From assembly GCF_000020025.1 (NCBI RefSeq), contig NC_010628.1, forward strand, positions 6,030,001 to 6,062,000: DNA of 32,000 nt, written 5' to 3'. The position numbers and the translations under genes were made by a program. Origin of the DNA: Nostoc punctiforme PCC 73102 (GTDB lineage Bacteria > Cyanobacteriota > Cyanobacteriia > Cyanobacteriales > Nostocaceae). The notes beneath the pieces were generated by a model. It was not told the origin of the DNA and searched no databases. It saw nothing but the letters and a program-made list of their open reading frames with translations. This document shows positions 6,701 to 31,702 of the stretch, piece after piece (position 1 is the first letter of the stretch; every line of letters begins with the position of its first letter).

Positions 6701-6893
6701 TAGTTAGATGCTGATGAACTGCTGTAACTATTAAAACAACACTGATGACAGTGACAATTTCGGAAAAAGAACAGCTTTAATTTTAGGTAAAAACTGCTAA
6801 TGTAATATTCCGTTGCTTTGCAAAATCCGGCTTGAAAGGGTATACCACAAGGTAGGCCCCTAAAGATATTTTGGCTTGTGGTTGGAGATGCTT

Positions 6894-11138: not shown

Positions 11139-12095
11139 TTAATCTAGGTTTAATAGTAACCGACGTAGGATCAGTTTTCCAACTCGTGGCCTTATAAAAT
11201 TTAAAATATACTCTGTAAGTTTTGGGGCGATAAGTGACAATAATGACAAGAATAATGCATTAACATCTCTAAAGCTATGAATAGCACCAACAACAAAAAT
11301 AGGGATAATGCAAATCAGCGTCCATGCCAACCAATTTATAAATTTAGAGTTGATTGAAGTACGTCTTTGAAGCTGATTTATAAGTACATAGCGAGTAGTA
11401 GCAAATAGTATAGTGAAGCTTATCAAAGCAAATATTGATAGTATTGCATTTGCTGTATATAAACTGGAGACAACCAAACCAGCAGGAAACAGCGAAGCTA
11501 TCTCCCAAACTAGCAGATTTAGTTTAGTCCGAAAACAACTTAGTATTTCTTCTGTTAGCCAATAATGAGCAGAAATAATTGTGGAACAGTTGGAATTTTG
11601 CATAAAATCCAACTTGATTTTGTGGAATATATCACCATGAATAAGGACAGTGCTTTGCAAAATAATATCTTTCTCTTTATAAGCATTTGAAGCTAATTCA
11701 GGCTGCTCATAGTAAGAATTAAAGGTGAGTCCAGACTGTAAACTTGCTTTCCCCGGTGCGGTTTTACTCAGAAAATATTTTAGAATATTGACTATAACAG
11801 TAACGTAAAAAAAATCACTAACTTCTTTTTCAGTAACTTCTTTTTTATTTGCGAAAACAACATTATTGCCGAAACAGGCGTAATACCAAAGAGGAATTAT
11901 CACTTTTGGCGGAATGTATAGAGAAACACCAGTTTTTTGTGCTTGCTGAATCTGTTCTACAACTGTCTCATTTAGATAAAAACTACACTGCGATCGCTCA
12001 ACCTTAAGTTGAAAGCGATCGCCTTGAGGAACTTGTAAAAATAGAGAGAGTACAACATCACCTTGGTTGTCTGTTTTTGTTATGTTGGCGTTCAT
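11139..12095 (-). CDS. Hypothetical membrane protein (soluble N-terminal domain of about 190 aa plus about 4 C-terminal TM helices), 318 aa
   Basis: Long ORF. Its start ATG overlaps the upstream gene's stop by 1 nt (TAATG at 12093-12097). Hydrophobic segments: LLVWEIASLFPAGLVVSSLY, AILSIFALISFTILFATT, WLAWTLICIIPIFVVGAI, LFLSLLSLIAP. No family recognised. Confidence 0.6.
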   Translation of the reverse strand: MNANITKTDNQGDVVLSLFLQVPQGDRFQLKVERSQCSFYLNETVVEQIQQAQKTGVSLYIPPKVIIPLWYYACFGNNVVFANKKEVTEKEVSDFFYVTVIVNILKYFLSKTAPGKASLQSGLTFNSYYEQPELASNAYKEKDIILQSTVLIHGDIFHKIKLDFMQNSNCSTIISAHYWLTEEILSCFRTKLNLLVWEIASLFPAGLVVSSLYTANAILSIFALISFTILFATTRYVLINQLQRRTSINSKFINWLAWTLICIIPIFVVGAIHSFRDVNALFLSLLSLIAPKLTEYILNFIRPRVGKLILRRLLLNLD

Positions 12096-12946
12096 TATCG
12101 AGATAAATTTGCGATACCCTGTACCAAACTAATCAAAAAACTAAATGTTCCACGCCACTGCTTTTCTCCAGAAATAACTCCTTGATTATGTGTATTAATG
12201 ATTAGATTTTTAGCGTCTTCAGATAAACTAAAGAGTTCTTTATGGTAACGAGTAATAATATCTCCATCTAACTGCATGACAGTTTGAGCAAAAATAATAT
12301 CAGTTTTAGTACTTGTCACGTTACCACCATCAAGTGCAGCTTTAAGTTCATACATTTTACGCAGGGTACGAACAAATTTATCATTATTTAAAAGTCTTTG
12401 AATCTCTTTAAAAGTTTCAATCCAATCTTCTTGATTGTTTCCGTCTTTGTCATCAAGAATAGGTGTTGGAGCAGGTAGTATTGGTTGAGCTAGCTTAACA
12501 TTCTCCTGATCGGCTTCGACTAGGTTTGGTTGATGCTTCTTCGCATATTCAAGCCTCTGGCGATATCGTTTTACTCGCTCATCCTGTGGATTATAAAAAT
12601 CTGAACCTTCTTCAAGAAGAAGGTAAAAATATTCTCTTTCTATTTGGTTAAATAAACTTCTATAACGCTTATGCAGTTCTTGAGCTTGAGAACCTTCTTC
12701 TGGAATACCTTTTGCCTCAAAGTAGTCTGGATCGTGTATAGAATAAATTTCTTGATATGCCTCCCAAGCATTAAACTTTGAAGCATTAATTCTATCTACA
12801 ACCATCGTATTTACTTCTAAGGCTGTGATGTCAGAAACTAATGTCTGTACAGAAGATACTAAATTGTTTAACAAGACTCTAGCTTGGTTTTGAATATCTT
12901 GAGGTTGAGCAACATTTCGGTCTTTAGTTTGAATATTATTAGACAT
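12095..12946 (-). CDS. Hypothetical protein, predicted largely alpha-helical, 283 aa
   Basis: Long ORF translationally coupled to the downstream membrane protein. No family recognised. Confidence 0.6.
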   Translation of the reverse strand: MSNNIQTKDRNVAQPQDIQNQARVLLNNLVSSVQTLVSDITALEVNTMVVDRINASKFNAWEAYQEIYSIHDPDYFEAKGIPEEGSQAQELHKRYRSLFNQIEREYFYLLLEEGSDFYNPQDERVKRYRQRLEYAKKHQPNLVEADQENVKLAQPILPAPTPILDDKDGNNQEDWIETFKEIQRLLNNDKFVRTLRKMYELKAALDGGNVTSTKTDIIFAQTVMQLDGDIITRYHKELFSLSEDAKNLIINTHNQGVISGEKQWRGTFSFLISLVQGIANLSR

Positions 12947-13072
12947 AGTTTCACCCTCTCACAGTTCTGGCTGTAGCATTGTATGAATAGCTAGATACAA
13001 GCAAATAAACCTAACGATTTTGCTAGGTTTCGGTAGCTACTTTAGCTTAAATGGGTAATTAACAAAGAATGC

Positions 13073-13531
13073 TTAAAGTTCTGACTTTTTGTGATTTTTC
13101 ACGATTTCCATAAAAAAACCATACAATTTTTCGACACTTTCTATATTCTTGTGAATGATCTCCCGACCATCTCTAATTTGAGTCAAATGAAATTCGCGAA
13201 TTTCTTTATAGGGCCCACTATCAGTAAATTGACTACCAATCTCATTTTGGATATCACCACTAACAAGATTAATTCGGGTATATATTCTATTACCTGGTTT
13301 GGCTGCTTCTATGTCATTTTGTTGCTGATCGGATGACTCTGCTACCCAAGTAGTAATTTTTAAATCAATAGATTCAACTATTACTGTTTTGATGGCATCA
13401 ATAATTTCATTAACATCCAGTCCTTTTTTATCGGCATTAAGATTAGTTACTATTGTTTTAAAATCACTATTTTTTGCCTGAATGGATAGACTATTATTTT
13501 CCAAGTTGTTCGTAACTACAGTATCTAGCAT
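13073..13531 (-). CDS. Hypothetical protein, 152 aa
   Basis: ORF in the first position of the minus-strand three-gene cassette. It is preceded by about 430 bp of very AT-rich non-coding DNA. No family recognised. Confidence 0.5.
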   Translation of the reverse strand: MLDTVVTNNLENNSLSIQAKNSDFKTIVTNLNADKKGLDVNEIIDAIKTVIVESIDLKITTWVAESSDQQQNDIEAAKPGNRIYTRINLVSGDIQNEIGSQFTDSGPYKEIREFHLTQIRDGREIIHKNIESVEKLYGFFMEIVKNHKKSEL

Positions 13532-13959
13532 AAGATTAAGGACACAACAGGTCTAATTGCGAACAAAACTTTATTCTAAATGATGTTCTAAATCTTACTA
13601 CTGTTACTTAACAAAACTCAGTAATATCAAAGGAACTTAATAATTTAAGAATTTGTTGCTTAAGAAAAGCAAAGCTAGGATTTTTAGCAGGTAATTTCAT
13701 CTCAAAAAAGAAAATAATTTATTTAGATTTTGCAAATAAGAAAGCATAAATCATACTCTATTACTCAGTAGTTTTTGTATAAAGTAATACTATTATTACT
13801 AGTTTGTGGTTATACCTGTTTTCAGCTTCTCTTGAGGTAAAGATAGACTGCTATAGTAGCCGCTTAATGGATACCCTCTTGTGACAATATAGCTGAGTAA
13901 TTATACAAGAAGTATATTATATATAATGAATTGCTTCTGCCTGATAAAAGAAGAAAAAT

Positions 13960-14745
13960 ATGTTGTTGCAGCGTAAAGCCATTGCTACACCTTTTATAAT
14001 TTGTGTGTCTATTTTAGGAATTGGCTTGATTCAATTTCCTCAATTGCAAACACTGATAGATAGAAAACAATCTGCCTCTTTAGAGACTCTGGAAAAAGAA
14101 ATAACGTCAGAACATCTCCGTTTGAATTTTCTCAAAAAAATGCCTAGTTTTGGTTATGAAAATTTAATCGCAGATTTGGTATATCTCAATTTCTTACAGT
14201 ACTTCGGAGATGATGAAGTTCGGGATAAAACAGGTTACAGTTTAAGTCCAGAATATTTTGAAGTAATTTTAGAACGTGACCCACGATTTTTAGCAGCGTA
14301 TCGGAGTCTTTCTATCAGTACTTCATTGTATGCTGCTATGCCAGAACGCACGATCGCACTATCAGAGAAAGGCTTAAAATCACTATCTCCCTTTGTTCCC
14401 GAAAAATCTTATTACGTATGGCGTTACAAAGGAATTGATGAGTTATTATTTTTAGGAAACGCTAAAGCTGCCCAAAAGTCTTTCGCAACGGCGGCAAACT
14501 GGGCTAGCAATCTTTCAGATACAGAAAGTCAAACTATAGGAAATATTTCCCGAAAAACTGCGGAATTTTTGGGTCGAAATCCTAATAGCAAATATGCTCA
14601 AATTGCTACCTGGGCAATAATTTTAAATAGTCAAGTTGATGATAGAACTCGGAAACGAGCAATTAGGGAAATTGAAGCTTTAGGAGGAAAAGTATTTACA
14701 ACTTCTGAAGGTAGTAATAAAATTCTCTTTCCACCAAAAGATTAA
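13960..14745 (+). CDS. Hypothetical protein with N-terminal TM/signal anchor, helical-repeat-like, 261 aa
   Basis: ORF with hydrophobic N-terminus AIATPFIICVSILGIGLI. No catalytic motifs recognised. Confidence 0.6.
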   Translation: MLLQRKAIATPFIICVSILGIGLIQFPQLQTLIDRKQSASLETLEKEITSEHLRLNFLKKMPSFGYENLIADLVYLNFLQYFGDDEVRDKTGYSLSPEYFEVILERDPRFLAAYRSLSISTSLYAAMPERTIALSEKGLKSLSPFVPEKSYYVWRYKGIDELLFLGNAKAAQKSFATAANWASNLSDTESQTIGNISRKTAEFLGRNPNSKYAQIATWAIILNSQVDDRTRKRAIREIEALGGKVFTTSEGSNKILFPPKD

Positions 14746-20947: not shown

Positions 20948-21328
20948 ATGTCTACAGAAATTGGTTTGGCTGAATTCATCCAGCAAGTAAAAAAAGAACT
21001 ACTGACTACTTACCCAAAGAATGAAAATGATACACCAATACTGTGTGTAGATTCTGTTGAGTTGGAACTACAAGTCACAGTCAAAACAGAAGGAAAGGGT
21101 GGTATAAAAATTAATGTTCTCCTCGGCGGAGAATTATCAGGCGGGGTTAGTAAGGATGGTGTACAGAAGGTAAAAGTGCAACTCTCGCCACTGTTAACTA
21201 AAGAGCAGATTCTCAAAGCCTACTACAAAGAAAATCCGGAAAAATGGCAGAAGTTTTTGGAGACAACTGTGGACGCATTACTGAAAGGTGATGGGGAAAG
21301 CAACCTCAATGAAGACCTCGGTGGCTAA
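20948..21328 (+). CDS. Small trypco2-like protein (trypsin/CHAT co-occurring beta-rich domain), 126 aa
   Basis: Pattern LAEFIQQVKKEL......P.L.VDSVELELQVTVKTEGKGGIKINVL.GGELSGGVSKDGVQKVKVQLSPL. From memory this matches the trypco2 family consensus (helix, then strands ending in h.h.L.P). AAGGA lies 7 nt upstream of the ATG. Confidence 0.6.
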   Translation: MSTEIGLAEFIQQVKKELLTTYPKNENDTPILCVDSVELELQVTVKTEGKGGIKINVLLGGELSGGVSKDGVQKVKVQLSPLLTKEQILKAYYKENPEKWQKFLETTVDALLKGDGESNLNEDLGG

Positions 21329-21356
21329 TATTCAGCACGATGGGTAAAGGGATAAA

Positions 21357-22916
21357 GTGAACACACTAGAACTGAGATTTTATCCGATTGAAGGGAAGCA
21401 GCATAGCTTCAAAGTGAGTGTCGAGGGTTCATCAGGGGAAGTCCATTATGAACCAGAGCTACCTTTTCTTGATGGTGAGATTCCAGATGTTGTGGATAGA
21501 CGTTTCACTATAGTTAAAGTATTAGAGTCAACTAAGTTTGACAACAATACCTTTGAAGATGAAAATGAGCAGGCTTGGATGCTACGCACAAGCCTTCTGC
21601 TGTCAGAGGGGAATGATTTTAAGCCTGGGTATTTGGCTGCTATCGGGAGTATACTCTATCAAGTATTAGGTAATAGTATTCAGCAGGTAATTGAGACAGC
21701 AGTAGCAGATGCTAAACGCGATCGCACCTGGTTACATATTCGGTTGAGATTTCCATCTGACGATCCCAAATTTGTCCATTTGACCGATTATCCTTGGGAG
21801 TTGCTCCATAACGATTATGATTTTCTGGCACATCAAGGCGTGACTTTCTCTCGTTATATTGCCTATGGCAGTCCTTGTCCCAACTTACCTACTGTTGAGC
21901 AGCTCAATGTCTTGTTGATTTCTTCTGGAGCAGGTGATAAAAGGCTGGGGCTACAATCCTTACCTGCTCTTGAGCAAGAAGCGATCGCCCAAGGACTTCA
22001 ACAAGCCAAAAATGAAGGGTTAATCCAACTGGAAATTCTCGCTCCTCCAACATGGAATGCTCTACGAACACGGTTGCTAGAGCGTCGAAATGCGGCAGTT
22101 CCTCATGTTCTCCATTTTGATGGTCATGGTTTTTTTGGAAAGCGCTGTAACCTAGCAGGATGCCGGAAAGCTTATAAGCAGAGTGCAACTCGTTGTGAAT
22201 GTAGTGCAACATTAGGAGAAGCCCAAGGTTATCTATTGTTTGAGCAATCTGATAGCACTGCCGACTATGTAAGTGCTAGGGAACTTGGTGAAATGTTGGG
22301 TAATTTGGAGCGTCGAGAGCAACCTAATTCAGATTGGGGAGTTACATTGGTAGTTCTCAGCGCTTGCAGAAGTGGAATGTCTCGTTTAAGTGAAACTGTC
22401 TTTAATGGTGTAGCTCAAAAGTTGATTGGTCAAGGTATTCCGGCTGTGGTGGCAATGCAGTATTCTGTCCGCGTGGATGCTGCTAGTGCTTTTTCTGAAG
22501 ACTTTTACAAATCACTTGGGCAAAAAGAGTCACTGGCAATCGCACTACGGCGAGGACAAAGTGCAATGGGGATTGAAGGTAATCAATGGTATCGCCCTGT
22601 GCTGTATCTGCGTTGGGAAGATAACGAGGGAGGAAAATTATTCAAGGATTCTCCAGAACGACCAAATGGTGAGTCTCAGGTTATCCTTTCCAAGGATGAT
22701 AGCTCAGTCAACATAGGAGCTACCTTTAGTAGCCCAGATAATGTCAAACGAAAAATTCTCACTGAGCGCCAAGAAAAATTAGAAAAGGAATATACATTAA
22801 TCAATCAACAAATTGATGAAACTATTGATGAGGTTTTGCGCTCTCGTCTTGAATTAAAGGCTGAAAGGATTTTTCGAGATTTGGAAAAGGTAAAATCTGA
22901 TTTATCAAAACTATAA
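21357..22916 (+). CDS. CHAT-domain (caspase-like) protease with N-terminal uncharacterised domain and C-terminal helical adaptor module, 519 aa
   Basis: Caspase-fold catalytic dyad context: PHVLHFDGHG (His257, nt 22125-22127) and TLVVLSACRSG (Cys336, nt 22362-22364), followed by IPAVVAMQYSV. GTG start. Confidence 0.8.
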   Translation: MNTLELRFYPIEGKQHSFKVSVEGSSGEVHYEPELPFLDGEIPDVVDRRFTIVKVLESTKFDNNTFEDENEQAWMLRTSLLLSEGNDFKPGYLAAIGSILYQVLGNSIQQVIETAVADAKRDRTWLHIRLRFPSDDPKFVHLTDYPWELLHNDYDFLAHQGVTFSRYIAYGSPCPNLPTVEQLNVLLISSGAGDKRLGLQSLPALEQEAIAQGLQQAKNEGLIQLEILAPPTWNALRTRLLERRNAAVPHVLHFDGHGFFGKRCNLAGCRKAYKQSATRCECSATLGEAQGYLLFEQSDSTADYVSARELGEMLGNLERREQPNSDWGVTLVVLSACRSGMSRLSETVFNGVAQKLIGQGIPAVVAMQYSVRVDAASAFSEDFYKSLGQKESLAIALRRGQSAMGIEGNQWYRPVLYLRWEDNEGGKLFKDSPERPNGESQVILSKDDSSVNIGATFSSPDNVKRKILTERQEKLEKEYTLINQQIDETIDEVLRSRLELKAERIFRDLEKVKSDLSKL

Positions 22917-22967
22917 ATTTTATATTTTTATATTAGTTAATTTTTTATAAAGAGAAAAGGTTGATTC

Positions 22968-23975
22968 ATGAATGTGAGGTCTGAGATACTAAGAGAATCA
23001 CCAATTGAAGTTAAGCGTAAAACTCTAAATAAGCGTTATACAGATTTGTTAAATCAATATACGTTAGCTAATCAAAAAATTGATGAGACAATTGAAGAGT
23101 CTGAACGTTACCGTCGGCAACAAGAGGCAGATAGATTGTACAGCGATCTAGAAGCTGTTGATAGAAAACTAAAACAACTTGATAAACAAAGCATTAATTC
23201 AAATCGTCGCTACTTAAATCTTGAACAAGATATAGCCAAAATTGATTTTGAGCAAGTAATGGAAAAAATTGACGAGATTATTCGTGGATTTCGTCGAGGA
23301 GTTAGAGGAGATGCATTGATAATAGTTCAAGAAAACCTTGCAATGGCTGGAGATTTATGCATTAAAAGAATACAAGAACGATTAGGGCAGGAAACAGGAG
23401 ATTTTAAGCATATTGAAATTGAATTTTCTCCTGAAGGATGTTTAGACAAAGTTGGTTTTTTAGAGAAGTTAGCAGAATATTTTAATGCTTCTTTTACTAA
23501 AGAGCCAGAGCAATTTGAGCAAGACTGTATTCAACTAATTATAGAAAAAATATGTGGTTCGCTTCAGGGAGGTAGTATTCTTTTTATGGAAGTTAGAAAA
23601 TGGGATGAGCTACCATGTCAAGAAGATATTTTTCAATGGTTTATTACTAGTTTTTGGATGCCTCTTATAGCTCGTTTAGAAATAGTTTCTCAAACTCATC
23701 GACGAGTGAAATTTATTGGTGCTATTGTGGCTGATGCAGAGTTTTCTTCAAGTTGTATCGATTTCGATTATTTATGTCTAGGTGAAAATCCTCCTAAAAT
23801 GCTGGTGTTACCTTTACAATTTTGGACGGTTGATGAAATTCAGGAATGGTTAGAATGCTATCCGGGTCTGGACAATCCTCGCAGTATACAACTAGCAAAA
23901 CGTATTCATCGAGCAAGTCAGAAGGGAATTCCATCACTAGTATGTACTGCATTGAGAAAAGAATTTATTGCATAA
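22968..23975 (+). CDS. Adaptor-like protein, 335 aa: N-terminal helical module homologous to the CHAT C-terminus plus an uncharacterised alpha/beta C-terminal domain (possible vWA-MoxR-associated, VMAP-type component)
   Basis: aa 15-71 align without gaps to CHAT aa 463-519, with 28/57 identical by hand count. The rest has alternating strand-like and helix-like segments (ALIIVQENLAMAG, SILFMEVRKWDELP, VKFIGAIVADAE). No intact Walker motifs were seen. Confidence 0.55.
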   Translation: MNVRSEILRESPIEVKRKTLNKRYTDLLNQYTLANQKIDETIEESERYRRQQEADRLYSDLEAVDRKLKQLDKQSINSNRRYLNLEQDIAKIDFEQVMEKIDEIIRGFRRGVRGDALIIVQENLAMAGDLCIKRIQERLGQETGDFKHIEIEFSPEGCLDKVGFLEKLAEYFNASFTKEPEQFEQDCIQLIIEKICGSLQGGSILFMEVRKWDELPCQEDIFQWFITSFWMPLIARLEIVSQTHRRVKFIGAIVADAEFSSSCIDFDYLCLGENPPKMLVLPLQFWTVDEIQEWLECYPGLDNPRSIQLAKRIHRASQKGIPSLVCTALRKEFIA

Positions 23976-24027
23976 ATAAAATTTTTTAACCGTTCACATA
24001 GCTGTTATTTAGATAAACATTGAATGT

Positions 24028-25005
24028 ATGGCTACAGTATCTAACCGATTAAAGTTTACGGGTGATTTCAACGCTCAACCTGAAAATCCACATAAGCATT
24101 CACCAACGCACCCAGAACCTTATATAATTTCTCCCGAATTAAAAAAAGCCGTCAATTTAGCTATCTACCTCCGGCGACCATTATTATTAGAAGGAGATGC
24201 GGGATGTGGTAAAACTCGCCTCGCTTCGGCTGTTGCTTATGAGTTAGGATTACCCCTTTACCGTTGGGATGTCCGTTCTACTACTAGAGCTTTGGATGGA
24301 CTATATGAATACGATGCAATTTTGAGACTGCATGATGTACAAACGCAGAAAGTAGCACCACTACCAATAGATGAATCACAAACAGATGAGGATGAAGATG
24401 AAGAAAGGTTAAATCATAATCCTGCTAATCCTAAGCACTACCGTAAATTTGGAGCGTTAGGAAAGGCATTTAAGTTAAAAGATTGTCCAGCAGTTGTGTT
24501 AATTGATGAGATTGATAAAGCAGATTTAGATTTTCCCAATGATTTGCTGACTGTATTAGATGAGCCTTGGGAATTCAAGATTAAGGAAACTGGGGAAACG
24601 ATTCGCGCTAACCATAAACCTATTGTCATCATTACTAGTAATAAAGAAAAAGGTAACTTACCTGCGCCATTTCTGCGGCGTTGCTTATATTACTATGTAG
24701 ACTTTCCTAATGAGAAGAAGCGATTACAGGAAATTGTCGAAAAACATTACCAAGTTCGTGAGGAAACACCCCCGCCTAGTGCTTTGGTGGAGAATGCGGT
24801 TGAGCGTTTCCTGGCTGTGTGGAATGAAGGTGGACTCTTCAAGAAACCGGGAACCAGTGAATTTCTTGATTGGCTAAAAGCACTCCACACCTTTGAGCCA
24901 AAACCATACAATGCAGCGCAACTTAAAAAAGACAAGCTACTACCCTACCGAGAGTTATTATTTAAGCTTCAGCAAGACTGGAAGAAATATGCTAAAACCT
25001 CATGA
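24028..25005 (+). CDS. MoxR-like AAA+ ATPase (AAA_5 type), 325 aa
   Basis: Walker A LLLEGDAGCGKTRLA (nt 24193-24216), Walker B AVVLIDEIDKAD (DE at 24505-24510), sensor-1-like VIITSN, and LRRC arginine. An acidic insert DESQTDEDEDEE is present. Confidence 0.85.
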   Translation: MATVSNRLKFTGDFNAQPENPHKHSPTHPEPYIISPELKKAVNLAIYLRRPLLLEGDAGCGKTRLASAVAYELGLPLYRWDVRSTTRALDGLYEYDAILRLHDVQTQKVAPLPIDESQTDEDEDEERLNHNPANPKHYRKFGALGKAFKLKDCPAVVLIDEIDKADLDFPNDLLTVLDEPWEFKIKETGETIRANHKPIVIITSNKEKGNLPAPFLRRCLYYYVDFPNEKKRLQEIVEKHYQVREETPPPSALVENAVERFLAVWNEGGLFKKPGTSEFLDWLKALHTFEPKPYNAAQLKKDKLLPYRELLFKLQQDWKKYAKTS

Positions 25006-26096
25006 GTTCCTTTAACCCCCAAGATTTAATTACTCGTGCCTTTATTCGTCTGCGCCAAAGTGGTTTTCAGCTTGGCGTGGGTGAACTTTTGGCGGCGAGA
25101 CAAGCAGTTGAGGGGGGATTTGGGGAAACTCCAGAAGAATTAGCTGAGACGTTGAAAATTTTATGGTGTCACTCTCCTTCAGAACAAACTCAGTTTGACC
25201 CCATTTGGGAATCTCTACCAGTCAATTTAAACCCCAAACTACCTGAAAAAAACCCTGGACAAGAATCAAAACCAGAAAAACATCAACAACAGGAGGAGAA
25301 ACCCCAAGAAAAACCATCACCACCGCCTTCTCAGGAAACTGGGACTGAAATCAAATCTGAACTGGAACTAGCATCACTCCCAATTCGCGCACCTTTTACT
25401 CCTGCGGAAACTGAGGATATATCTACATTACAGGCATACTATCCCATTTCCCGGCGTTCGATGATCTATAGCTGGCGATATCTCCGCCGACCTGTTGGGG
25501 ATGGGCCATTAAATGTACTAGATGTCGATGCCACCATTGAGCAAACCACTCGCCAGGGATTTTACTTAGCTCCAGTTTACCGCAGACAAGAAAGGAATAA
25601 TGCCCATCTGTTACTGCTGCTTGACCAAAATGGCTCGATGAACCCGTTTCACCGCTTCACTCGTGATTTAGTGGAAACGGCACTCTACGAAAGTTCTCTG
25701 CAACCAGAAAAAGTAGATGTATTTTATTTCCATAACGTGCCTGCTGCCAGTGTTTACAAAGACCTCTACCTGACAGAACCAATTGCTCTACAAAGGGTAT
25801 TAGCCGCCTGCGATAATCAAACTAGTATATTGATTGTCAGTGATGCTGGCGCTGCACGGGGGTATCGGGAGTTAAAGCGAATTCAGGCAACTACAAGTTG
25901 TTTATTTAAATTGAACCAGTACACTTCTTTGATTGCTTGGTTAAATCCTATGCCTGAAGAACGCTGGATTGGCAGTTCAGCAGAAATCATTGCTAATTTG
26001 GTGCCAATGTATCAGATGGATAATAATGGCTTAAGTAATGCTATTGATATTGTGCGCGGACAACCTCTCCAACACTTACATTCACCTCTCTCATGA
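25002..26096 (+). CDS. vWA-domain protein (CoxE-like, MoxR partner), 364 aa
   Basis: It overlaps the MoxR stop by 4 nt (ATGA). MIDAS-region strand LLLLLDQNGSMNPF (nt 25623-25640) and later strand ILIVSDAGAARG. A P/E/Q/K-rich low-complexity linker spans aa 78-118. Confidence 0.75.
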   Translation: MSSFNPQDLITRAFIRLRQSGFQLGVGELLAARQAVEGGFGETPEELAETLKILWCHSPSEQTQFDPIWESLPVNLNPKLPEKNPGQESKPEKHQQQEEKPQEKPSPPPSQETGTEIKSELELASLPIRAPFTPAETEDISTLQAYYPISRRSMIYSWRYLRRPVGDGPLNVLDVDATIEQTTRQGFYLAPVYRRQERNNAHLLLLLDQNGSMNPFHRFTRDLVETALYESSLQPEKVDVFYFHNVPAASVYKDLYLTEPIALQRVLAACDNQTSILIVSDAGAARGYRELKRIQATTSCLFKLNQYTSLIAWLNPMPEERWIGSSAEIIANLVPMYQMDNNGLSNAIDIVRGQPLQHLHSPLS

Positions 26097-28039
26097 CAGA
26101 TTTAGCTAATGCAGGGCAATTGCGAGAACAGGCGAAACAAGCAGTAGATAGATTTGTGCGGCGTTTCGATAAATCCTATCGACTATTAGCGTATCATGCT
26201 GCATTACCTTTGGTACTGACTCCAGAATTAGTAAACTACCTACGCAATGAGTTTTTGCGAAGTGAGCAAGTTCCTTGGGTAGCAGAGGTTGACTTGTTGT
26301 TGTCTGACCTGTGCAGTCAAGTGGGGTACGAACTTTACGCAATGGAAACCCATGTGCGGGAATATCTCCTAGAGCAAATGCAGCAAGACTCAAGCTTTGG
26401 CAAGCAGCGAATGCAAGAAGTAGCACAGGTCTTATACAGTTATGTCAGTTATCTAAGTCGGCTTAATCCCGGAAGACGGCAACAGGAAATAGAAGCTCAA
26501 CGATGGGCAGCAATGGTATATTTGGGGGATGAACAGTGTAAAAAGGCAGCGAGTGAAATTGTCCAGCGACTAATAGAAACCATTAGTGGAACAGATAGCG
26601 AAATTCTCTCTGACTCTGGTATTCGGGCTGAGTTAGCACGATTAGCACGCATTACCAAAGAACTATCGCCTCAGTTACAGCAAGAGCCTACTTTACTAGA
26701 GTCTGCAAGATTGGTACAGCAAGTTTTAAGAACATCACAGAAAGTTCCTGCGCTAGAAGAGTTGGCAAAGATTTTGACATCTTCTAAGCAGATAGTTGCT
26801 AATCTGGAAGGCTTTCCACCAATACAAACTTTTGAATTTCAAGTAGCAAGCATCACTATTCAGAGTGATGATATAGAAGCATTTAATCTTCAAATCTTTG
26901 AATTTGAAGTAGCAACTATCACAGGAATCAACGAGTCTAATATATCAAGTACAATTAATTCTGTAGAAATTGTTGATAATCTAGTATTTTCTCAAATAGA
27001 AAAACACCTAAGTAGAGTTGAAGAGTTAATCATACAGGCAGCAATATCAAATCAAAGTTATAAGAAAATTACAATACAAGGTTATACCACAAACTACCTA
27101 AGTAATGTTGCTAGCAAATTATGGAAAGTTTTATCGGCAGCATTAGGCGAAAAAGTTAATAAATCAAATTTAAAGAATGTTATTCAACGGTGGGTAAATT
27201 ATTCTCAAATAGATATTCACCGCAGTCTTGGACAAGCTCAGTATTTTATCGAAGACTTTGGGAATGGAATTTGGCTAGAGATGGTGCAGATTCCCGGAGG
27301 CACTTTTGTAATGGGTTCACCGGAAGATGAACTAGAGCGCCATGATGATGAAGATCCTCAGCATACAGTAACAGTACAGCAATTTTGCATGGGTAAACAC
27401 CCAGTAACCCAAGCACAGTGGAGAGCAGTAGCAGCACTACCGCAATTTAACCGCGAACTTGATGCTGACCCCTCTGAATTTAAAGGTGCAAATCGACCAG
27501 TTGAGCAAGTTTCCTGGTACGATGCGGTTGAATTCTGCGATCGCATCTCCCAACATACAGGAAAAAGCTACCGTCTGCCCAGCGAAGCAGAATGGGAATA
27601 TGCCTGTCGCGCTGGAACTACCACCCCATTTCATTTTGGTGAAACAATCACATCAAAACTGGCAAACTATAATGCTAGCTACACTTATGGCGCGGGTGTG
27701 GAAGGAATATATCGCCAAGAAACTACAGTTGTGGGCAGTTTTGGAGTAGCTAATGCCTTTGGGTTATACGATATGCACGGAAACATAGACGAATGGTGTC
27801 TCGATGATTGGCACGATAACTATGAAGGTGCGCCTACAGATGGCAGTGCTTGGCTTGACGAAAATGATAACCTTTATCAAAAACAAGGACGTGCCGTGCT
27901 GCGGGGCGGTTCCTGGTTCAACAATCCTGATTTCTGCCGTTCCGCGTCCCGCGTCATCAACAGTTGGGCGGAGCGCGACAACGTCGTCAGCAATGTTGGT
28001 TTTCGTGTTGTCTGCGCGTTCGGGAGGATTCTTCAGTAG
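26093..28039 (+). CDS. DGR target protein 1, 648 aa: N-terminal helical domain, duplicated FEF(E/Q)VA(S/T)IT motif, HTH-like segment, and C-terminal FGE-sulfatase (C-type-lectin fold) domain carrying VR1
   Basis: It overlaps the vWA stop by 4 nt (ATGA). C-terminal domain motifs: GGTFVMGS, HPVTQAQW, RLPSEAEWEYACRAG, YDMHGNIDEW, RGGSW...CRSASR. The last 47 codons coincide with VR1. Confidence 0.9.
   Translation: MTDLANAGQLREQAKQAVDRFVRRFDKSYRLLAYHAALPLVLTPELVNYLRNEFLRSEQVPWVAEVDLLLSDLCSQVGYELYAMETHVREYLLEQMQQDSSFGKQRMQEVAQVLYSYVSYLSRLNPGRRQQEIEAQRWAAMVYLGDEQCKKAASEIVQRLIETISGTDSEILSDSGIRAELARLARITKELSPQLQQEPTLLESARLVQQVLRTSQKVPALEELAKILTSSKQIVANLEGFPPIQTFEFQVASITIQSDDIEAFNLQIFEFEVATITGINESNISSTINSVEIVDNLVFSQIEKHLSRVEELIIQAAISNQSYKKITIQGYTTNYLSNVASKLWKVLSAALGEKVNKSNLKNVIQRWVNYSQIDIHRSLGQAQYFIEDFGNGIWLEMVQIPGGTFVMGSPEDELERHDDEDPQHTVTVQQFCMGKHPVTQAQWRAVAALPQFNRELDADPSEFKGANRPVEQVSWYDAVEFCDRISQHTGKSYRLPSEAEWEYACRAGTTTPFHFGETITSKLANYNASYTYGAGVEGIYRQETTVVGSFGVANAFGLYDMHGNIDEWCLDDWHDNYEGAPTDGSAWLDENDNLYQKQGRAVLRGGSWFNNPDFCRSASRVINSWAERDNVVSNVGFRVVCAFGRILQ
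27899..28025 (+). repeat. DGR variable repeat VR1
   Basis: 127-nt ungapped match to the TR (30586-30712). All 15 mismatches fall at TR adenines and there are no other differences. Confidence 0.93.
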
Positions 28040-28191
28040 CCCTTTATACTCTAGTGCTTTAGCCCTTTACTCTTCTTTTTTTGCCCTTTGTTAGCGTAGC
28101 GAAGCGGAGCGTTATAAATTTTTTTTCAAATTTAAGCCTGGGAAGTCCCCAAATTTACAATTAAGCAAGAAAGTAAAGCAAGTGGTAATAA

Positions 28192-29031
28192 ATGCCAAAA
28201 ATAGTTATAAGCCACACACAGAAGACAGCCCAATACTATGTAGAAGACTTAGGTAATGGAATTAATTTAGAGATGGTGGTGATTCCTGCGGACAGTTTTA
28301 TGATGGGTTCATCAGAAGATGAACTAGAGCGTAGTGATTCAGAAAGCCCTCAGCATTTAGTGAACGTTAAACAATTTTGTATGGGTAAGTATCCAGTTAC
28401 CCAAGCACAGTGGAAAGCCGTAGCAGCACTACCAGGGGTTAACAGAGAGCTAGAAGCTGACCCATCGAATTTCAAAGGAGATCAACGACCTGTAGAGAAA
28501 GTATCTTGGTACGATGCGGTAGAGTTTTGCGATCGCCTTGCTGCCCATACTAAAAGACAGTACCGCCTACCCAGTGAAGCCGAATGGGAATATGCCTGTA
28601 GAGCCGGAACTACGACTCCATTCCATTTTGGCGAAACAATTACATCAAAGTTAGCCAACTATGATGCTAACTATACTTATGTCGCAGGTGAGAAAGGAAC
28701 ATATCGACAAGAGACTACACCTGTGGGCAGTTTTGGCGTAGCTAACGCCTTTGGGCTATACGATATGCACGGAAATGTGTTGGAATGGTGTCTCGACGAT
28801 TGGCACGATAACTATGAACGTGCGCCGACAGATGGTAGTCCTTGGTTTAATGATAATGATAGCCTTTACCAAAGACAAGGAAATGCTGTACTGCGGGGCG
28901 GTTCCTGGATCTTCGATCCTGATTACTGCCGTTCCGCGTCCCGCAACCTCAGCTATAGGGCGGAGCGCGACGGCATCCTCAGCACTCTTGGTTTTCGTGT
29001 TGTCTGCGCGTTCGGGAGGATTCTTCAGTAG
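28192..29031 (+). CDS. DGR target protein 2, 279 aa: stand-alone FGE-sulfatase (C-type-lectin fold) domain protein carrying VR2
   Basis: Collinear paralog of aa 382-648 of the upstream protein, with the same motifs (RLPSEAEWEYACRAG, YDMHGNVLEW, RGGSW...CRSASR). The last 47 codons coincide with VR2. Confidence 0.9.
   Translation: MPKIVISHTQKTAQYYVEDLGNGINLEMVVIPADSFMMGSSEDELERSDSESPQHLVNVKQFCMGKYPVTQAQWKAVAALPGVNRELEADPSNFKGDQRPVEKVSWYDAVEFCDRLAAHTKRQYRLPSEAEWEYACRAGTTTPFHFGETITSKLANYDANYTYVAGEKGTYRQETTPVGSFGVANAFGLYDMHGNVLEWCLDDWHDNYERAPTDGSPWFNDNDSLYQRQGNAVLRGGSWIFDPDYCRSASRNLSYRAERDGILSTLGFRVVCAFGRILQ
28891..29017 (+). repeat. DGR variable repeat VR2
   Basis: 127-nt ungapped match to the TR. 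All 17 mismatches fall at TR adenines and there are no other differences. Confidence 0.93.
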
Positions 29032-29084
29032 CCCTTTATACTTTAGTCTTTTAGCCCTTTACGCTTGTTCTTTTTTCCTTTTTT

Positions 29085-29113
29085 GTCGCCTCATGGCGAC
29101 TCAAATTTTTTTA
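29085..29113 (+). terminator. Possible terminator after target gene 2
   Basis: GTCGCC-tcat-GGCGAC hairpin followed by tcaaattttttt. Confidence 0.4.
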
Positions 29114-29140
29114 TGAAAATATTAAAATTGATAAAATCAA

Positions 29141-29485
29141 ATGAAAGAATTATCGGTCATCCAAAAGACCTATGATTGTATTAAATGGTATGTGCCAATT
29201 ATTGAGCGATTGCCGAAAATACATAAGTTTTCTTTAGGAGATAGGATAATTAATCAACTATACGATTTATTGGAGGGTTTAATTAAAGCCAAATATGCGA
29301 AAAATAAACTTCCTCAACTAGAATCTCTCAATACAGAGCTAGATATTTTACGATATCAAACACGAATGCTGCTTGACTTCAATAAAATATCAGTTGAGCG
29401 ATACGAATATGCAATAAAATTATTAGATGAAATTGGTATTGAACTAGGTGGATGGATTAAAAAACAAAGAGAGAGGGAAAACTAA
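29141..29485 (+). CDS. avd: DGR accessory variability determinant (Avd; four-helix-bundle, 23S rRNA IVS protein family), 114 aa
   Basis: Size, position immediately upstream of the RT, and family pattern Y....WY.....LPK..KF.LGDRI......LLE.LI.A.Y...K...L......L..LR...R. Confidence 0.8.
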   Translation: MKELSVIQKTYDCIKWYVPIIERLPKIHKFSLGDRIINQLYDLLEGLIKAKYAKNKLPQLESLNTELDILRYQTRMLLDFNKISVERYEYAIKLLDEIGIELGGWIKKQREREN

Positions 29486-29505
29486 GTTTATTTAAATAAA
29501 ATATA

Positions 29506-30564
29506 ATGAAGCGTTACGGCAACCTTTACCCTCAAATTATTGATTTTGAAAATATACTTTTAGCATCTCGTCAGGCACAAAAAGGCAAGAGATTTCGGGA
29601 TAATGTTTTAGATTTTAATTATCATCTAGAAACTGAATTAATTAGATTGCAGGAACACTTAAAAGATAAAACTTATCAGCCAGGAGCTTACCGAACCTTT
29701 CACCTGATAAATCCCAAAAGCCGCCTCATTTCAGCCGCACCCTATCGGGATAGGGTTGTTCATCATGCACTATGCAATGTAATAGTACCAATTTTTGAGA
29801 GAACTTTCATTGCTGACTCCTACGCTAATCGAATTGGTTTTGGGACGCATCGAGCTTTAAAAAAATTTACTCATTTTGTTAGGAACAGCCGTTATATACT
29901 GCAATGTGATATTAGGAAATATTTCCCTACTATTGACCATATAACTTTAAAAGAATTAATACGCCGTAAAATCAAATGCCTCGATACATTGTGGTTAATT
30001 GACGCTATCATCGACAACAGCAACGAACAAGAAACGGTAATTGATTATTTTCCTGGTGATGATTTACTTACTCCTGTGACTCGTAGGAGAGGTTTACCTA
30101 TCGGAAATTTAACTAGCCAATTTTTTGCCAATATTTATTTAAATGGTTTTGACCATTTTATAAAAGAACAGCTAAATATATCCAAATATGTCCGTTATGT
30201 TGATGACTTTGCTTTATTTAGTAATGACCGAGAATTCTTAGCAGATGCCAGATTCGCTATAGAAGAATATTTAGCTCAATTGAGGCTGAAAATTCACCCA
30301 GTTAAAAGCCAGTTATTTGAAACGAAAATTGGTGCAACTTTTCTAGGGTTTAGAGTATTTTCAGACAGAATACGGGTAAGAAATAGCAATTTACATCAAG
30401 CAAGGCGCAGACTCAAGCGATTGAAAACAGACTATGCTCAAGGTAAAATTGAACTCAAGGAAGTAACTCAATCTATAAAAAGTTGGGTTGCTCACTTAGA
30501 ACATGGCGATACTTGGCAATTACGCAAACAGATATTTACTTCCCTCTGTTTTAGGAGAAAGTAG
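29506..30564 (+). CDS. DGR reverse transcriptase, 352 aa
   Basis: RT motifs: [62 protein letters not shown] (the DGR-typical IGxxxSQ), the catalytic YVDD at nt 30196-30207, and FLGFRVF. No maturase or endonuclease extension. The TR lies 22 nt downstream. Confidence 0.92.
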
Positions 30565-30585
30565 AGAAGGGGTATGCGAACCCGA

Positions 30586-30712
30586 CTGCGGGGCGGTTCC
30601 TGGATCAACAATCCTAAAAACTGCCGTTCCGCGTCCCGCAACAACAACAATAGGGCGGAGCGCGACAACATCAACAACAATATTGGTTTTCGTGTTGTCT
30701 GCGCGTTCGGGA
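30586..30712 (+). repeat. DGR template repeat (TR)
   Basis: An AAC/AAT-rich invariant copy of the VRs: ctgcggggcggttcctgg atcaacaatcctaaaaac tgccgttccgcgtcccgc aacaacaacaatagg gcggagcgcgac aacatcaacaacaatatt ggttttcgtgttgtctgcgcgttcggga. It contains 32 adenines, 29 of them in three variable patches. Confidence 0.93.
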
Positions 30713-31051
30713 TGTCTCTTCACCGCGAGAGTCGGCAGGTGGGAATCTGTCGAGAGTGCAACCGAAGAGTCCAGCCTACACCTGTGATGTCGGTGACGAT
30801 ATCCGAAAATCAAACTGGGTGGGGTAGCTTGGTAAGCTTGCTGAACAGTTACCTCACCATCCAACTATTCATATAACTTTTCACACTACTCTTCATTTCC
30901 AAGAAAAGTCAACGAATTAGCTTAATAGAGATAAATTACCTTAGCCATATTACTTACAACAAAACATCCAACTGTTTTATTTATCAACCTTGATGGTAGC
31001 TAGTTCAACTAAACTAGATGTACTATCAGTCTAATAGTTAGACTGATATTT

Positions 31052-31378
31052 ATGGTTGATGATGATGTAGGCTACGATTACCAACGGGTGCTAAAGCTGC
31101 TAAAATTTATGCGCTCCATTCGCTGTAAAACCTTGCATCCCCGCGACTTTACTGAAAAATACCAACTAACTCAAGCTCAACTAGCCGAATTGTTAGGCGT
31201 ATCCATACAGCTTGTCAAAACTTGGTTTGCACGAGAAAACGCACGACAACCAGAACAGAGGTATTTAGATCGTCTTGCTGAAATTGATGCCCTTTTAGAA
31301 ATCAAAAAAGTTATTGATGAAAAAATTCCTCCTCACCTGCAAGCACTATTCAATCTAGACAATAGGTTTAATAATTAG
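31052..31378 (+). CDS. Helix-turn-helix (XRE-like) DNA-binding protein, 108 aa
   Basis: LTQAQLAELLGVSIQLVKTWFA matches the HTH_3-type helix-turn-helix pattern. Confidence 0.6.
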   Translation: MVDDDVGYDYQRVLKLLKFMRSIRCKTLHPRDFTEKYQLTQAQLAELLGVSIQLVKTWFARENARQPEQRYLDRLAEIDALLEIKKVIDEKIPPHLQALFNLDNRFNN

Positions 31379-31447
31379 ACTATAAATCTTGACTTTGCTA
31401 GTTGGCAAACTTTATCTTGGTTTAAAACCGTTTGCTACTGATAAATT

Positions 31448-31702
31448 ATGATGTCCACTAGCTTTTTACCCAATGCGGAAGACTTAAATGTAGTTATTCC
31501 TAGTCAAGCCAACTCTCAAACAGTACCTCTCAGAGAACCCCTTAAACATCTCCTGATAGGTTCTTCCAAAGCTGTAATTAGCACCATTCGCTACTTACAG
31601 GTTATTGGCTATGCAGATGTTGGAGATTGGAGCCAACTCCTACCCACAGGTAATACAGGAGAATTCATGAGTATTCTAAGCCGTAACATTGTAGTGCAAT
31701 AG
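31448..31702 (+). CDS. Small hypothetical protein, 84 aa
   Basis: ORF followed by a strong terminator. No family recognised. Confidence 0.45.
   Translation: MMSTSFLPNAEDLNVVIPSQANSQTVPLREPLKHLLIGSSKAVISTIRYLQVIGYADVGDWSQLLPTGNTGEFMSILSRNIVVQ

Follow-up and report, generated by a model that had tools for sequence, protein, structure and literature searches.

We analyzed a window of 32,000 nucleotides from Nostoc punctiforme PCC 73102 (contig NC_010628.1, positions 6,030,001 to 6,062,000); the window is this whole stretch, and all coordinates below are positions within it. Our subject is a block of co-oriented genes at positions 20948-30722, which we identify with high confidence as a MoxR-vWA "ternary" conflict system of the iSTAND type that is coupled to a diversity-generating retroelement (DGR), i.e., as Npun_F4884-F4892. 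This identification is made because the encoded proteins have the appropriate domain matches, because exact-sequence look-up returned proteins of N. punctiforme PCC 73102 / ATCC 29133 within the range ACC83231-83238 (the CHAT protease ACC83231, the MoxR ATPase ACC83233, DGR target 1 ACC83235, DGR target 2 ACC83236 and the reverse transcriptase ACC83238), and because the published locus numbering agrees.

The block consists of nine genes on the + strand followed by the non-coding template repeat (TR) of the retroelement. A first-pass annotation of this DNA had counted ten co-oriented genes; the block, its coordinates and its orientation hold, but the list of open reading frames (ORFs) contains nine genes, and the TR is the tenth element. 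Its domain calls were all borne out by Pfam and NCBIfam searches, which returned Trypco2, CHAT, AAA/AAA_5, VWA_CoxE, FGE-sulfatase, bAvd and RVT_1. In gene order, the intergenic gaps are 28, 51, 52, -4, -4, 152, 109 and 20 nucleotides, and both of the -4 junctions (MoxR/vWA and vWA/target 1) read ATGA, so the overlaps that had been reported to link the MoxR, vWA and 648-amino-acid proteins are indeed present. Consensus scans for promoters and terminators gave counts that were not above those of shuffled sequences (24 versus 28.7, and 10 versus 9.1), and operon boundaries therefore cannot be called from sequence.

Both the exact locus and its role as a "hypervariable immune sensor" are already in the literature, where the function is a prediction. 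The supplement of Vallota-Eastman et al. 2020 (PMC7517822) lists this reverse transcriptase with ACC83236 (VP1) and ACC83235 (VP2) as a two-target DGR, and records other CLec-domain proteins encoded outside the locus, a number of them marked as remote variable proteins. A 2025 study in mBio (PMC12691664) identifies target 1 with Npun_F4889, target 2 with Npun_F4890 and the reverse transcriptase with Npun_F4892, and interprets the locus as a conflict system. The same study found that every part of the DGR is expressed, with very high expression of the TR RNA, that deep resequencing reveals low adenine-specific diversity in the variable repeats (VRs) of both targets, greater in VR2 than in VR1, and that the genes for CHAT (F4885), MoxR (F4887), vWA (F4888) and target 2 are co-expressed. 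The earlier suggestion that such an order of genes, with two VR targets, might be new to the literature therefore fails, because the locus Npun_F4884-F4892 was catalogued in 2020 and analyzed in 2025. The attribution of the class itself to a prediction by the Aravind group is accurate: Kaur et al. 2020 (eLife, PMC7159879) defined the iSTAND ternary systems, described their FGE-sulfatase (FGS) domains and noted their frequent coupling to DGRs. FGS is the commonest variable domain (~22%) in iSTAND-type MoxR-vWA ternary systems (Kaur et al. 2020, PMC7159879; Kaur et al. 2021, eLife, PMC8195603). In the supplement of Kaur et al. 2020, N. punctiforme is found only in the multicellularity table and not in the gene-neighbourhood tables (PMC7159879).

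The features expected of an iSTAND-type system are found together here: an intact MoxR gene followed by a CoxE-type vWA gene, a third component with an iSTAND domain, and the same effector-associated domain (EAD) on a peptidase. The MoxR-like AAA+ ATPase (325 aa, Npun_F4887, ACC83233; 24028..25005, +) matches Pfam AAA/AAA_5 and carries the NCBI name MoxR family; its Walker A (G[DE]AGCGKT), Walker B (LIDEID) and PFLRRC motifs are invariant in 66 orthologues. The vWA protein (364 aa, Npun_F4888; 25002..26096, +; VWA_CoxE, 3.3e-10), whose gene has ATGA overlaps on both sides, has motifs D208-Q-N-G-S212 and D281 that are conserved in 73 orthologues. An additional point is that the first metal-site motif (window 25611-25643, residues 204-214) reads D-Q-[N/E/D]-G-S-M in 73/73 orthologues and never the canonical DxSxS, and metal or ligand binding by this vWA domain may be atypical. 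The third component (335 aa, by position Npun_F4886; 22968..23975, +) has an N-terminal EAD9 domain (7.8e-17) followed by iSTAND, an inactive STAND domain (1.2e-8; PF19995, 35.9 bits versus a gathering cutoff of 24). Its P-loop is judged to be degenerate, as none of 58 iSTAND orthologues has a GK[ST] motif at that position. A VMAP-type ternary system would have a VMAP third component, but no VMAP-family Pfam match was found on any of the nine proteins; the third component is iSTAND.

The protease arm begins with a protease-partner gene that encodes a Trypco2-domain protein (126 aa, by position Npun_F4884; 20948..21328, +; PF19631, E 2.5e-18). It is followed by a caspase-like protease of TCAD3-CHAT-EAD9 architecture (519 aa, Npun_F4885, ACC83231; 21357..22916, +; TCAD3 3e-31, CHAT 2e-27, EAD9 3e-20). 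The dyad His257/Cys337 of this protease is invariant in 17 homologues; the histidine is the one that had been proposed before, but the catalytic cysteine is residue 337 and not 336. From the invariant dyad and the invariant Walker A/B motifs, both the CHAT and MoxR enzymes are predicted to be active. The C-terminal EAD9 of the CHAT protein and the N-terminal EAD9 of the iSTAND protein are 49% identical over 61 aa (E 7e-16), so a matching adaptor is present on the iSTAND protein and on a protease that appears catalytically intact. By the homotypic-adaptor logic that Kaur et al. 2020 (PMC7159879) set out for matched EADs, the EAD9-iSTAND protein would tether the CHAT protease. The first-pass annotation had called it an adaptor, which agrees with the EAD9 match but falls short: as judged by its domains, it is the third core component of the ternary system.

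Searches of PADLOC-DB 2.0 matched no catalogued defence system. The matches were at the domain level only: the CHAT protein matched SAVED_CHAT at 1.7e-9, and the remaining matches were to generic RT/DRT models and to fragments around the P-loop in IetA and other models. No match at all was obtained for 5/9 proteins. In a crude test, no 19-residue window with mean hydropathy >1.25 and no signal-like N-terminus was found in the system's proteins, and because of this lack of hydrophobic segments and signal-like N-termini, the system is probably cytoplasmic.

The DGR acts on two target proteins. Target 1 (648 aa, Npun_F4889, ACC83235; 26093..28039, +; Pfam FGE-sulfatase, 2e-54) is composed of a helical N-module (aa 1-276), a mid region (aa 277-395), where precomputed annotations on homologues place PF26355, and an FGS domain of C-type-lectin fold (aa 396-640). 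Target 2 (279 aa, Npun_F4890, ACC83236; 28192..29031, +; Pfam FGE-sulfatase, 3e-52) has the FGS domain only: it is a paralogue of aa 372-648 of target 1, with 75% identity to that protein's C-terminus, and lacks the tether. The closest solved structures to target 2 are PvdO (5hha) and then Treponema denticola TvpA (2y3c, E 2.6e-22). The FGS proteins score below every enzyme equivalog cutoff in NCBIfam, the best being PvdO with 167.7 bits versus 500, and EgtB and GldK are also far below. These proteins are predicted to share the fold of formylglycine-generating enzyme, PvdO and EgtB, but because the scores are so far below the cutoffs, we conclude that they are not members of the PvdO, EgtB or GldK enzyme families.

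The rewriting of these two proteins is seen in the repeats. The TR (30586..30722, +) is a 137-nucleotide member of direct-repeat family D2, beginning 21 nucleotides after the reverse transcriptase stop codon; VR1 (27899..28035, +) occupies codons 603-648 of target 1, i.e., its last 46 codons, and VR2 (28891..29027, +) occupies the equivalent C-terminal end of the 279-aa target 2. Over the first 127 nucleotides, VR1 differs from the TR at 15/32 adenines and VR2 at 17/32, and each differs at 0/95 other bases (Fisher p 5e-11 and 1e-12, respectively); the first-pass annotation had named the two VR targets and the TR. The 32 TR adenines lie mostly within AAC/AAT codons, and each VR has 20 variable codons, which corresponds to ~6e18 protein variants. 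Three TR/VR differences that do not involve adenines, at 30713-30716, fall inside a 3'-terminal segment that is identical between VR1 and VR2 and resembles an initiation of mutagenic homing (IMH) element. At this end both VRs read GGGAGGATTCTTCAG versus GGGATGTCTCTTCAC in the TR; the non-adenine differences lie in the last 10-15 nucleotides and would fit IMH versus IMH*. Beyond the VRs, folding prediction gave weak, AT-rich stems. The TR 3' end and the sequence that follows it (30707..30817, +; 111 nt, minimum free energy -35.6 kcal/mol, no Rfam match) are predicted to be strongly folded, and this segment is a candidate 3' element of the DGR RNA; no Rfam family reached its gathering score anywhere in the window.

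The cassette is completed by the accessory protein Avd (114 aa, by position Npun_F4891; 29141..29485, +; Pfam bAvd 1.5e-20), which scores 141.9 bits against the NCBIfam DivGenRetAVD equivalog cutoff of 80, and by the reverse transcriptase (352 aa, Npun_F4892, ACC83238; 29506..30564, +; Pfam RVT_1 5e-21), whose closest match among solved structures is 8ub7, a reverse-transcriptase chain (E 1.3e-46). The locus thus has the features of a DGR, namely TR/VR differences confined to adenines, adjacent reverse transcriptase and Avd genes, and a VR at the C-terminus of a target with C-type-lectin/FGS fold. This Avd/RT/TR cassette carries out adenine-directed rewriting of ~20 codons on the C-terminal face of two paralogous lectin-fold (FGS) proteins.

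Some further observations concern the repeats. Eight TR adenines (window 30604-30682) are substituted in both VRs, and at 6/8 of these the replacement base is the same (e.g., AAA > GAT at codon 613), for which the binomial p is ~0.02 on the assumption that the three alternative bases are equally likely. Selection, misincorporation bias of the reverse transcriptase or shared ancestry could each account for the common bases. All Logan contigs of public N. punctiforme runs are 100% identical to the window and break at 27607, 29018 or 30712. These break points are repeats common to target 1, target 2 and the TR, and the contigs are therefore uninformative on VR heterogeneity. Full-length targets are found in one contig each, versus 85 contigs for MoxR. 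This effect of assembly might be misread as polymorphism in the VRs. A related strain (L086 152-3373, from Logan SRR16479526, 93% identical to window 28561-30561) has an identical reverse transcriptase protein and an Avd, and the position upstream of Avd that the short target 2 holds in the window is taken there by a 1073-aa Peptidase_C14-FGS fusion; here the targets have been swapped and the reverse transcriptase conserved.

It is important to consider whether the retroelement and the MoxR/vWA/CHAT genes belong together, or whether a DGR with its two targets lies by chance beside an unrelated operon. The gaps of 152 and 109 nucleotides around target 2, together with a hairpin and T-run resembling a terminator that separate target 2 from Avd (29085..29100, +; from the consensus scan, and suggestive only given that the regional count is not above shuffles), would fit two independent neighbours, as would the published finding that Avd and reverse transcriptase expression is uncorrelated with that of the other genes (PMC12691664). 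Gene neighbourhoods in relatives were compared in 80 loci, one genome per species, anchored on the N-module of target 1 and counted only where enough flanking sequence was present. These loci are mainly cyanobacterial, and also come from Chloroflexota, Abditibacteriota and other metagenome-assembled genomes (MAGs) and phyla. The vWA gene is directly upstream of the N-module gene in 67/73 loci, with MoxR upstream in 64/66 and iSTAND in 55/58, which answers in the affirmative the proposal that conservation of the neighbourhood be checked. An overlap of -4 is the commonest junction both between vWA and the module (21/67) and between MoxR and vWA (29/60). Most related loci have no nearby reverse transcriptase, with Avd or reverse transcriptase within 10 kb in 18/56, which again would suit independent neighbours. 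However, target 1 itself overlaps the vWA gene by ATGA, the N-module gene follows the vWA gene with the frequency just given, and FGS-bearing ternary systems are frequently associated with DGRs (Kaur et al. 2020, PMC7159879). Moreover, an adenine-mutated VR is found on the orthologous long target in 14 other loci: in these 14 reverse transcriptase-bearing loci, the targets that pair with the TR include that protein, and the differences are almost all at adenines. A chance juxtaposition is thus extremely unlikely.

The long target's genomic coupling to vWA, MoxR and iSTAND is obligatory, and the order iSTAND, MoxR, vWA, helical-module gene is nearly universal among the related loci. An additional FGS ORF is present in 36/56 loci and a CHAT homologue in 16/48; a Trypco2 gene accompanies the CHAT gene in 10/16 of the related loci with a CHAT homologue. 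Because the gene order is near-universal while reverse transcriptase or Avd (18/56) and CHAT (16/48) are not, we conclude that the core is a four-gene machine (iSTAND, MoxR, vWA and the helical-module gene), to which the DGR and the protease are frequent, exchangeable accessories. The full order of Trypco2, TCAD3-CHAT, iSTAND, MoxR, vWA, long target, short target, Avd, reverse transcriptase and TR is present in Scytonema hyalinum (L011). One MAG contig (JBCCNE010000001.1, 15182-36033 and 43738-64589; L029/L030) carries two blocks of Trypco2-CHAT-iSTAND-MoxR-vWA-module/FGS in opposite orientation, with identical ORF coordinates in both copies. The first-pass annotation had also taken target 1 to be a stoichiometric subunit of the ATPase/vWA module; the conserved 4-nucleotide overlaps point in this direction, and we only infer such a subunit from them.

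The N-module of target 1 deserves separate attention, as it would connect the diversified domain to the core. Kaur et al. 2021 (PMC8195603) described a helical linker, vWA-L, and a minority of iSTAND systems in which vWA-L and an effector are encoded by a separate gene beside vWA. An AlphaFold2 (AF2) model of the N-module (280 aa) is mostly helical, with a pLDDT of 75.6. Its C-terminal end (aa 232-280) has a pLDDT <50, i.e., the linker of target 1 is poorly modelled. The module is strongly conserved: its profile retrieved 1741 cluster representatives, in which it is almost always N-terminal. FGS is the commonest domain to follow it, and the alternatives include TIR arrays, PNP_UDP+SEFIR, kinase+STAND, NB-ARC+TPR and STAND+EAD7+SMODS, as well as calcineurin-like phosphoesterase (Metallophos), trypsin+EAD8, GUN4 and sigma-70 region 4. 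The module precedes many alternative domains and is encoded after vWA in 67/73 loci; no fusion to vWA was found among the best 150 of the 1741 representatives. The target 1 N-module is probably vWA-L. We rejected such a fusion as Rosetta-stone evidence, since the module is N-terminal in essentially all of these best 150. Of P0164, P0220 and P0252, the one examined was P0164, a clearly internal case; it combines EAD8 and Metallophos and has no similarity to the vWA or iSTAND protein of the window.

Given this architecture, we considered how the system might work. In the model of Doré et al. 2024 (PNAS, PMC10907252) and Kaur et al. 2021 (PMC8195603), the diversified FGS face would bind an invader-derived intracellular ligand, and the signal would reach the MoxR ATPase by way of the helical module and then the vWA protein. 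The first-pass annotation had proposed a flow in this direction, which is one of two published models. MoxR would then provide an ATP-driven threshold or remodelling step on a complex with iSTAND. CHAT, docked through EAD9-EAD9 pairing and with Trypco2 as its partner, would be activated to cleave substrates of the cell or of the system itself, and within the filament, the infected cell would as a result stop growing or die. Characterised DGR targets of the lectin fold, e.g., Mtd and TvpA, are ligand binders. We tentatively favour this direction of flow, from FGS through MoxR/vWA to CHAT, because known DGR lectin-fold targets bind ligands, because CHAT is the sole intact degradative enzyme of the locus, and because the later literature converges on it. 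That TvpA, a characterised ligand binder, is the second-closest solved relative of target 2 is in line with a sensor role. If correct, the system would be an anticipatory, hypermutation-based bacterial immune receptor coupled to a caspase-like executioner, parallel to vertebrate adaptive receptors and with a bearing on the containment of infection in multicellular lineages; N. punctiforme is genetically tractable.

Several points weigh against this sensor direction. Literature searches returned no phenotype, in defence or in cell death, for any system of this class. The previous statement that there is no experimental characterisation is correct in this respect, but expression, co-expression and the low adenine-specific diversity of the VRs have been published (PMC12691664). 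No CHAT substrate is evident in the locus. The domains that take the FGS slot in paralogues (TIR, PNP_UDP+SEFIR, kinase+STAND, SMODS, phosphoesterase) are output-like and not sensor-like, and Kaur et al. 2020 (PMC7159879) placed EAD9 among the adaptors that recruit "signalling" peptidases, not terminal effectors. The tether-less target 2 is the more mutated target and the co-expressed one (PMC12691664). Lastly, since only 18/56 loci have Avd or reverse transcriptase within 10 kb, the core machine does not depend on diversification.

Some of these points would be accommodated if information flowed in the opposite direction, as Kaur et al. 2020 envisaged. The iSTAND protein would sense the invader, e.g., its nucleic acid, MoxR-vWA would set the threshold, the EAD9-recruited CHAT protease would signal by processing a vWA-linked component, and the DGR-diversified FGS proteins would be the output, in the form of binders that, like antibodies, neutralise or sequester molecules of the invader. 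Target 2, which is free, would be a constitutively untethered form, which is consistent with its equivalence to aa 372-648 of target 1 minus the tether, and the poorly modelled linker of target 1 (aa 232-280) could be the cleavage site. The presence of TIR, PNP_UDP/SEFIR, SMODS, Metallophos and kinases at the FGS position, the assignment of EAD9 to the recruitment of signalling components and the description of FGS as an effector (PMC7159879) all favour such an output. However, with one variant per cell, the FGS protein would be a weak neutralising agent, and proteolytic release is less obviously needed here, where separate genes already encode vWA and target 1. In addition, there is no evidence of nucleic acid binding by iSTAND, and in a later paper these authors reinterpreted FGS as a lectin that senses invaders (Kaur et al. 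2021, PMC8195603). Overall, we consider this direction to be somewhat unlikely.

A role unrelated to invaders must also be considered, in which a diversified signalling or self/non-self module tunes developmental cell death, kin recognition or symbiosis, along the lines of the "regulatory pathway tuning" of Vallota-Eastman et al. 2020 (PMC7517822). Fusions of DGR targets to a wide range of signalling domains are known from cyanobacteria (PMC7517822), the paralogues of the N-module bear GUN4, sigma70 region 4, kinases and TPR, and the locus is expressed and slowly diversified in axenic culture without phage (PMC12691664). It also fits that the NCBIfam match of the CHAT protein, weak and far below its cutoff, is to HetF, a cyanobacterial cell-division/differentiation protease. 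Despite these observations, EADs, iSTAND, TIR, CHAT and Trypco2 form the vocabulary of predicted conflict systems enriched in multicellular bacteria, a fixed endogenous ligand would hardly explain hypervariability, and the locus adjoins genes that resemble those of mobile elements. We regard a non-defence role as unlikely.

The pair of targets suggests a further arrangement, unproposed in the literature, which we consider quite improbable. The tethered target 1 would be the signalling receptor on the MoxR/vWA/iSTAND platform, and the free, more heavily mutated target 2 would be either a soluble competitor or co-receptor, acting by exchange or heterodimer formation, or the form that CHAT would imitate by cutting the linker of target 1. 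This two-tier receptor would be analogous to the membrane-bound and secreted forms of immunoglobulin. If it exists, the recurrence of a long and a short target (36/56 loci with an extra FGS ORF) and the 6/8 common replacement bases in the VRs would reflect co-selection of both heads.

Other features of the window and its surroundings are as follows. Downstream of the TR (window 31052-31702, continued past the window end in L085 1842-5412), there are three small ORFs with no Pfam match and then a 733-aa DUF3854/D5_N/DUF5906 primase-like protein, and the group resembles a portion of an integrated mobile element that abuts the DGR. At 6876-9524 (+), an 882-aa DnaE (Pol III alpha, with PHP, NTPase and finger domains) has a weak Intein_splicing match at its C-terminal end (E 1.5e-4, 22 bits, below the Pfam gathering score of 35.8), and this protein may represent the N-terminal half of a DnaE with a split intein, which for this species would mean the "Npu DnaE" split intein. 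The region 11139-14745 is AT-rich (GC 0.30-0.35, versus 0.40-0.55 elsewhere), has ORFs of 318, 283 and 261 aa without a Pfam match, and may be a foreign island unrelated to the DGR block. A 1434-aa protein at 462-4766 (+) has 13 matches to the FG-GAP repeat together with cadherin-like/Big_9 domains and RTX repeats; it is likely to be an adhesin that is secreted, and it too is unrelated to the block.

In comparison to the published accounts of this very locus (PMC12691664, PMC7517822), our sequence is identical, and the targets, reverse transcriptase, CHAT, MoxR and vWA have the same numbering. Those publications loosely label MoxR/vWA as "STAND-family ATPases" and do not name Npun_F4884 (Trypco2), Npun_F4886 (EAD9-iSTAND), the EAD9 pairing or the helical N-module. 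The present analysis adds modestly to this knowledge: the system is typed as iSTAND and not VMAP, Npun_F4884, Npun_F4886 and the EAD9 pairing are named, the Trypco2-CHAT pairing is noted and neighbourhood conservation is quantified. The parts list also gains the split between vWA and helical-module sensor and a probable cytoplasmic location, while the window holds no new object.

Among the known classes, the block most resembles the iSTAND-type systems of Kaur et al., with a MoxR that lacks VMAP-type extensions, a CoxE-type vWA, FGS with DGR linkage, and an iSTAND third component whose N-terminal EAD is matched to the peptidase. One difference is that caspase-superfamily peptidases were described, in the section on VMAP components, as accompanied by an alpha/beta-hydrolase neighbour (Kaur et al. 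2020, PMC7159879), whereas in this block, as in 10 related loci, that place is taken by Trypco2, whose name refers to co-occurrence with trypsin. Doré et al. 2024 (PMC10907252) described DGR-diversified "putative antigen sensors" of multicellular bacteria with adjoining Trypco and peptidase genes, proposed the same flow from sensor to MoxR to effector, and remarked on the pairing of a long with a short target. However, their work centred on Thiohalocapsa, and they called the cyanobacterial systems VMAP-type, with only a subset having a VMAP domain and no mention of iSTAND, which is the third component here. With the DGRs of Bordetella phage BPP-1 (Mtd/Avd/bRT/TR) and T. denticola TvpA, the Nostoc locus has in common Avd and reverse transcriptase, adenine-specific transfer from TR to VR, and a C-terminal VR on a C-type-lectin/FGS fold. 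It differs from them in having its TR downstream of the reverse transcriptase and in having two targets; these are probably cytoplasmic and wired to an ATPase/protease module, whereas the diversified protein is a phage tail fibre in BPP-1 and a surface lipoprotein in the case of TvpA.

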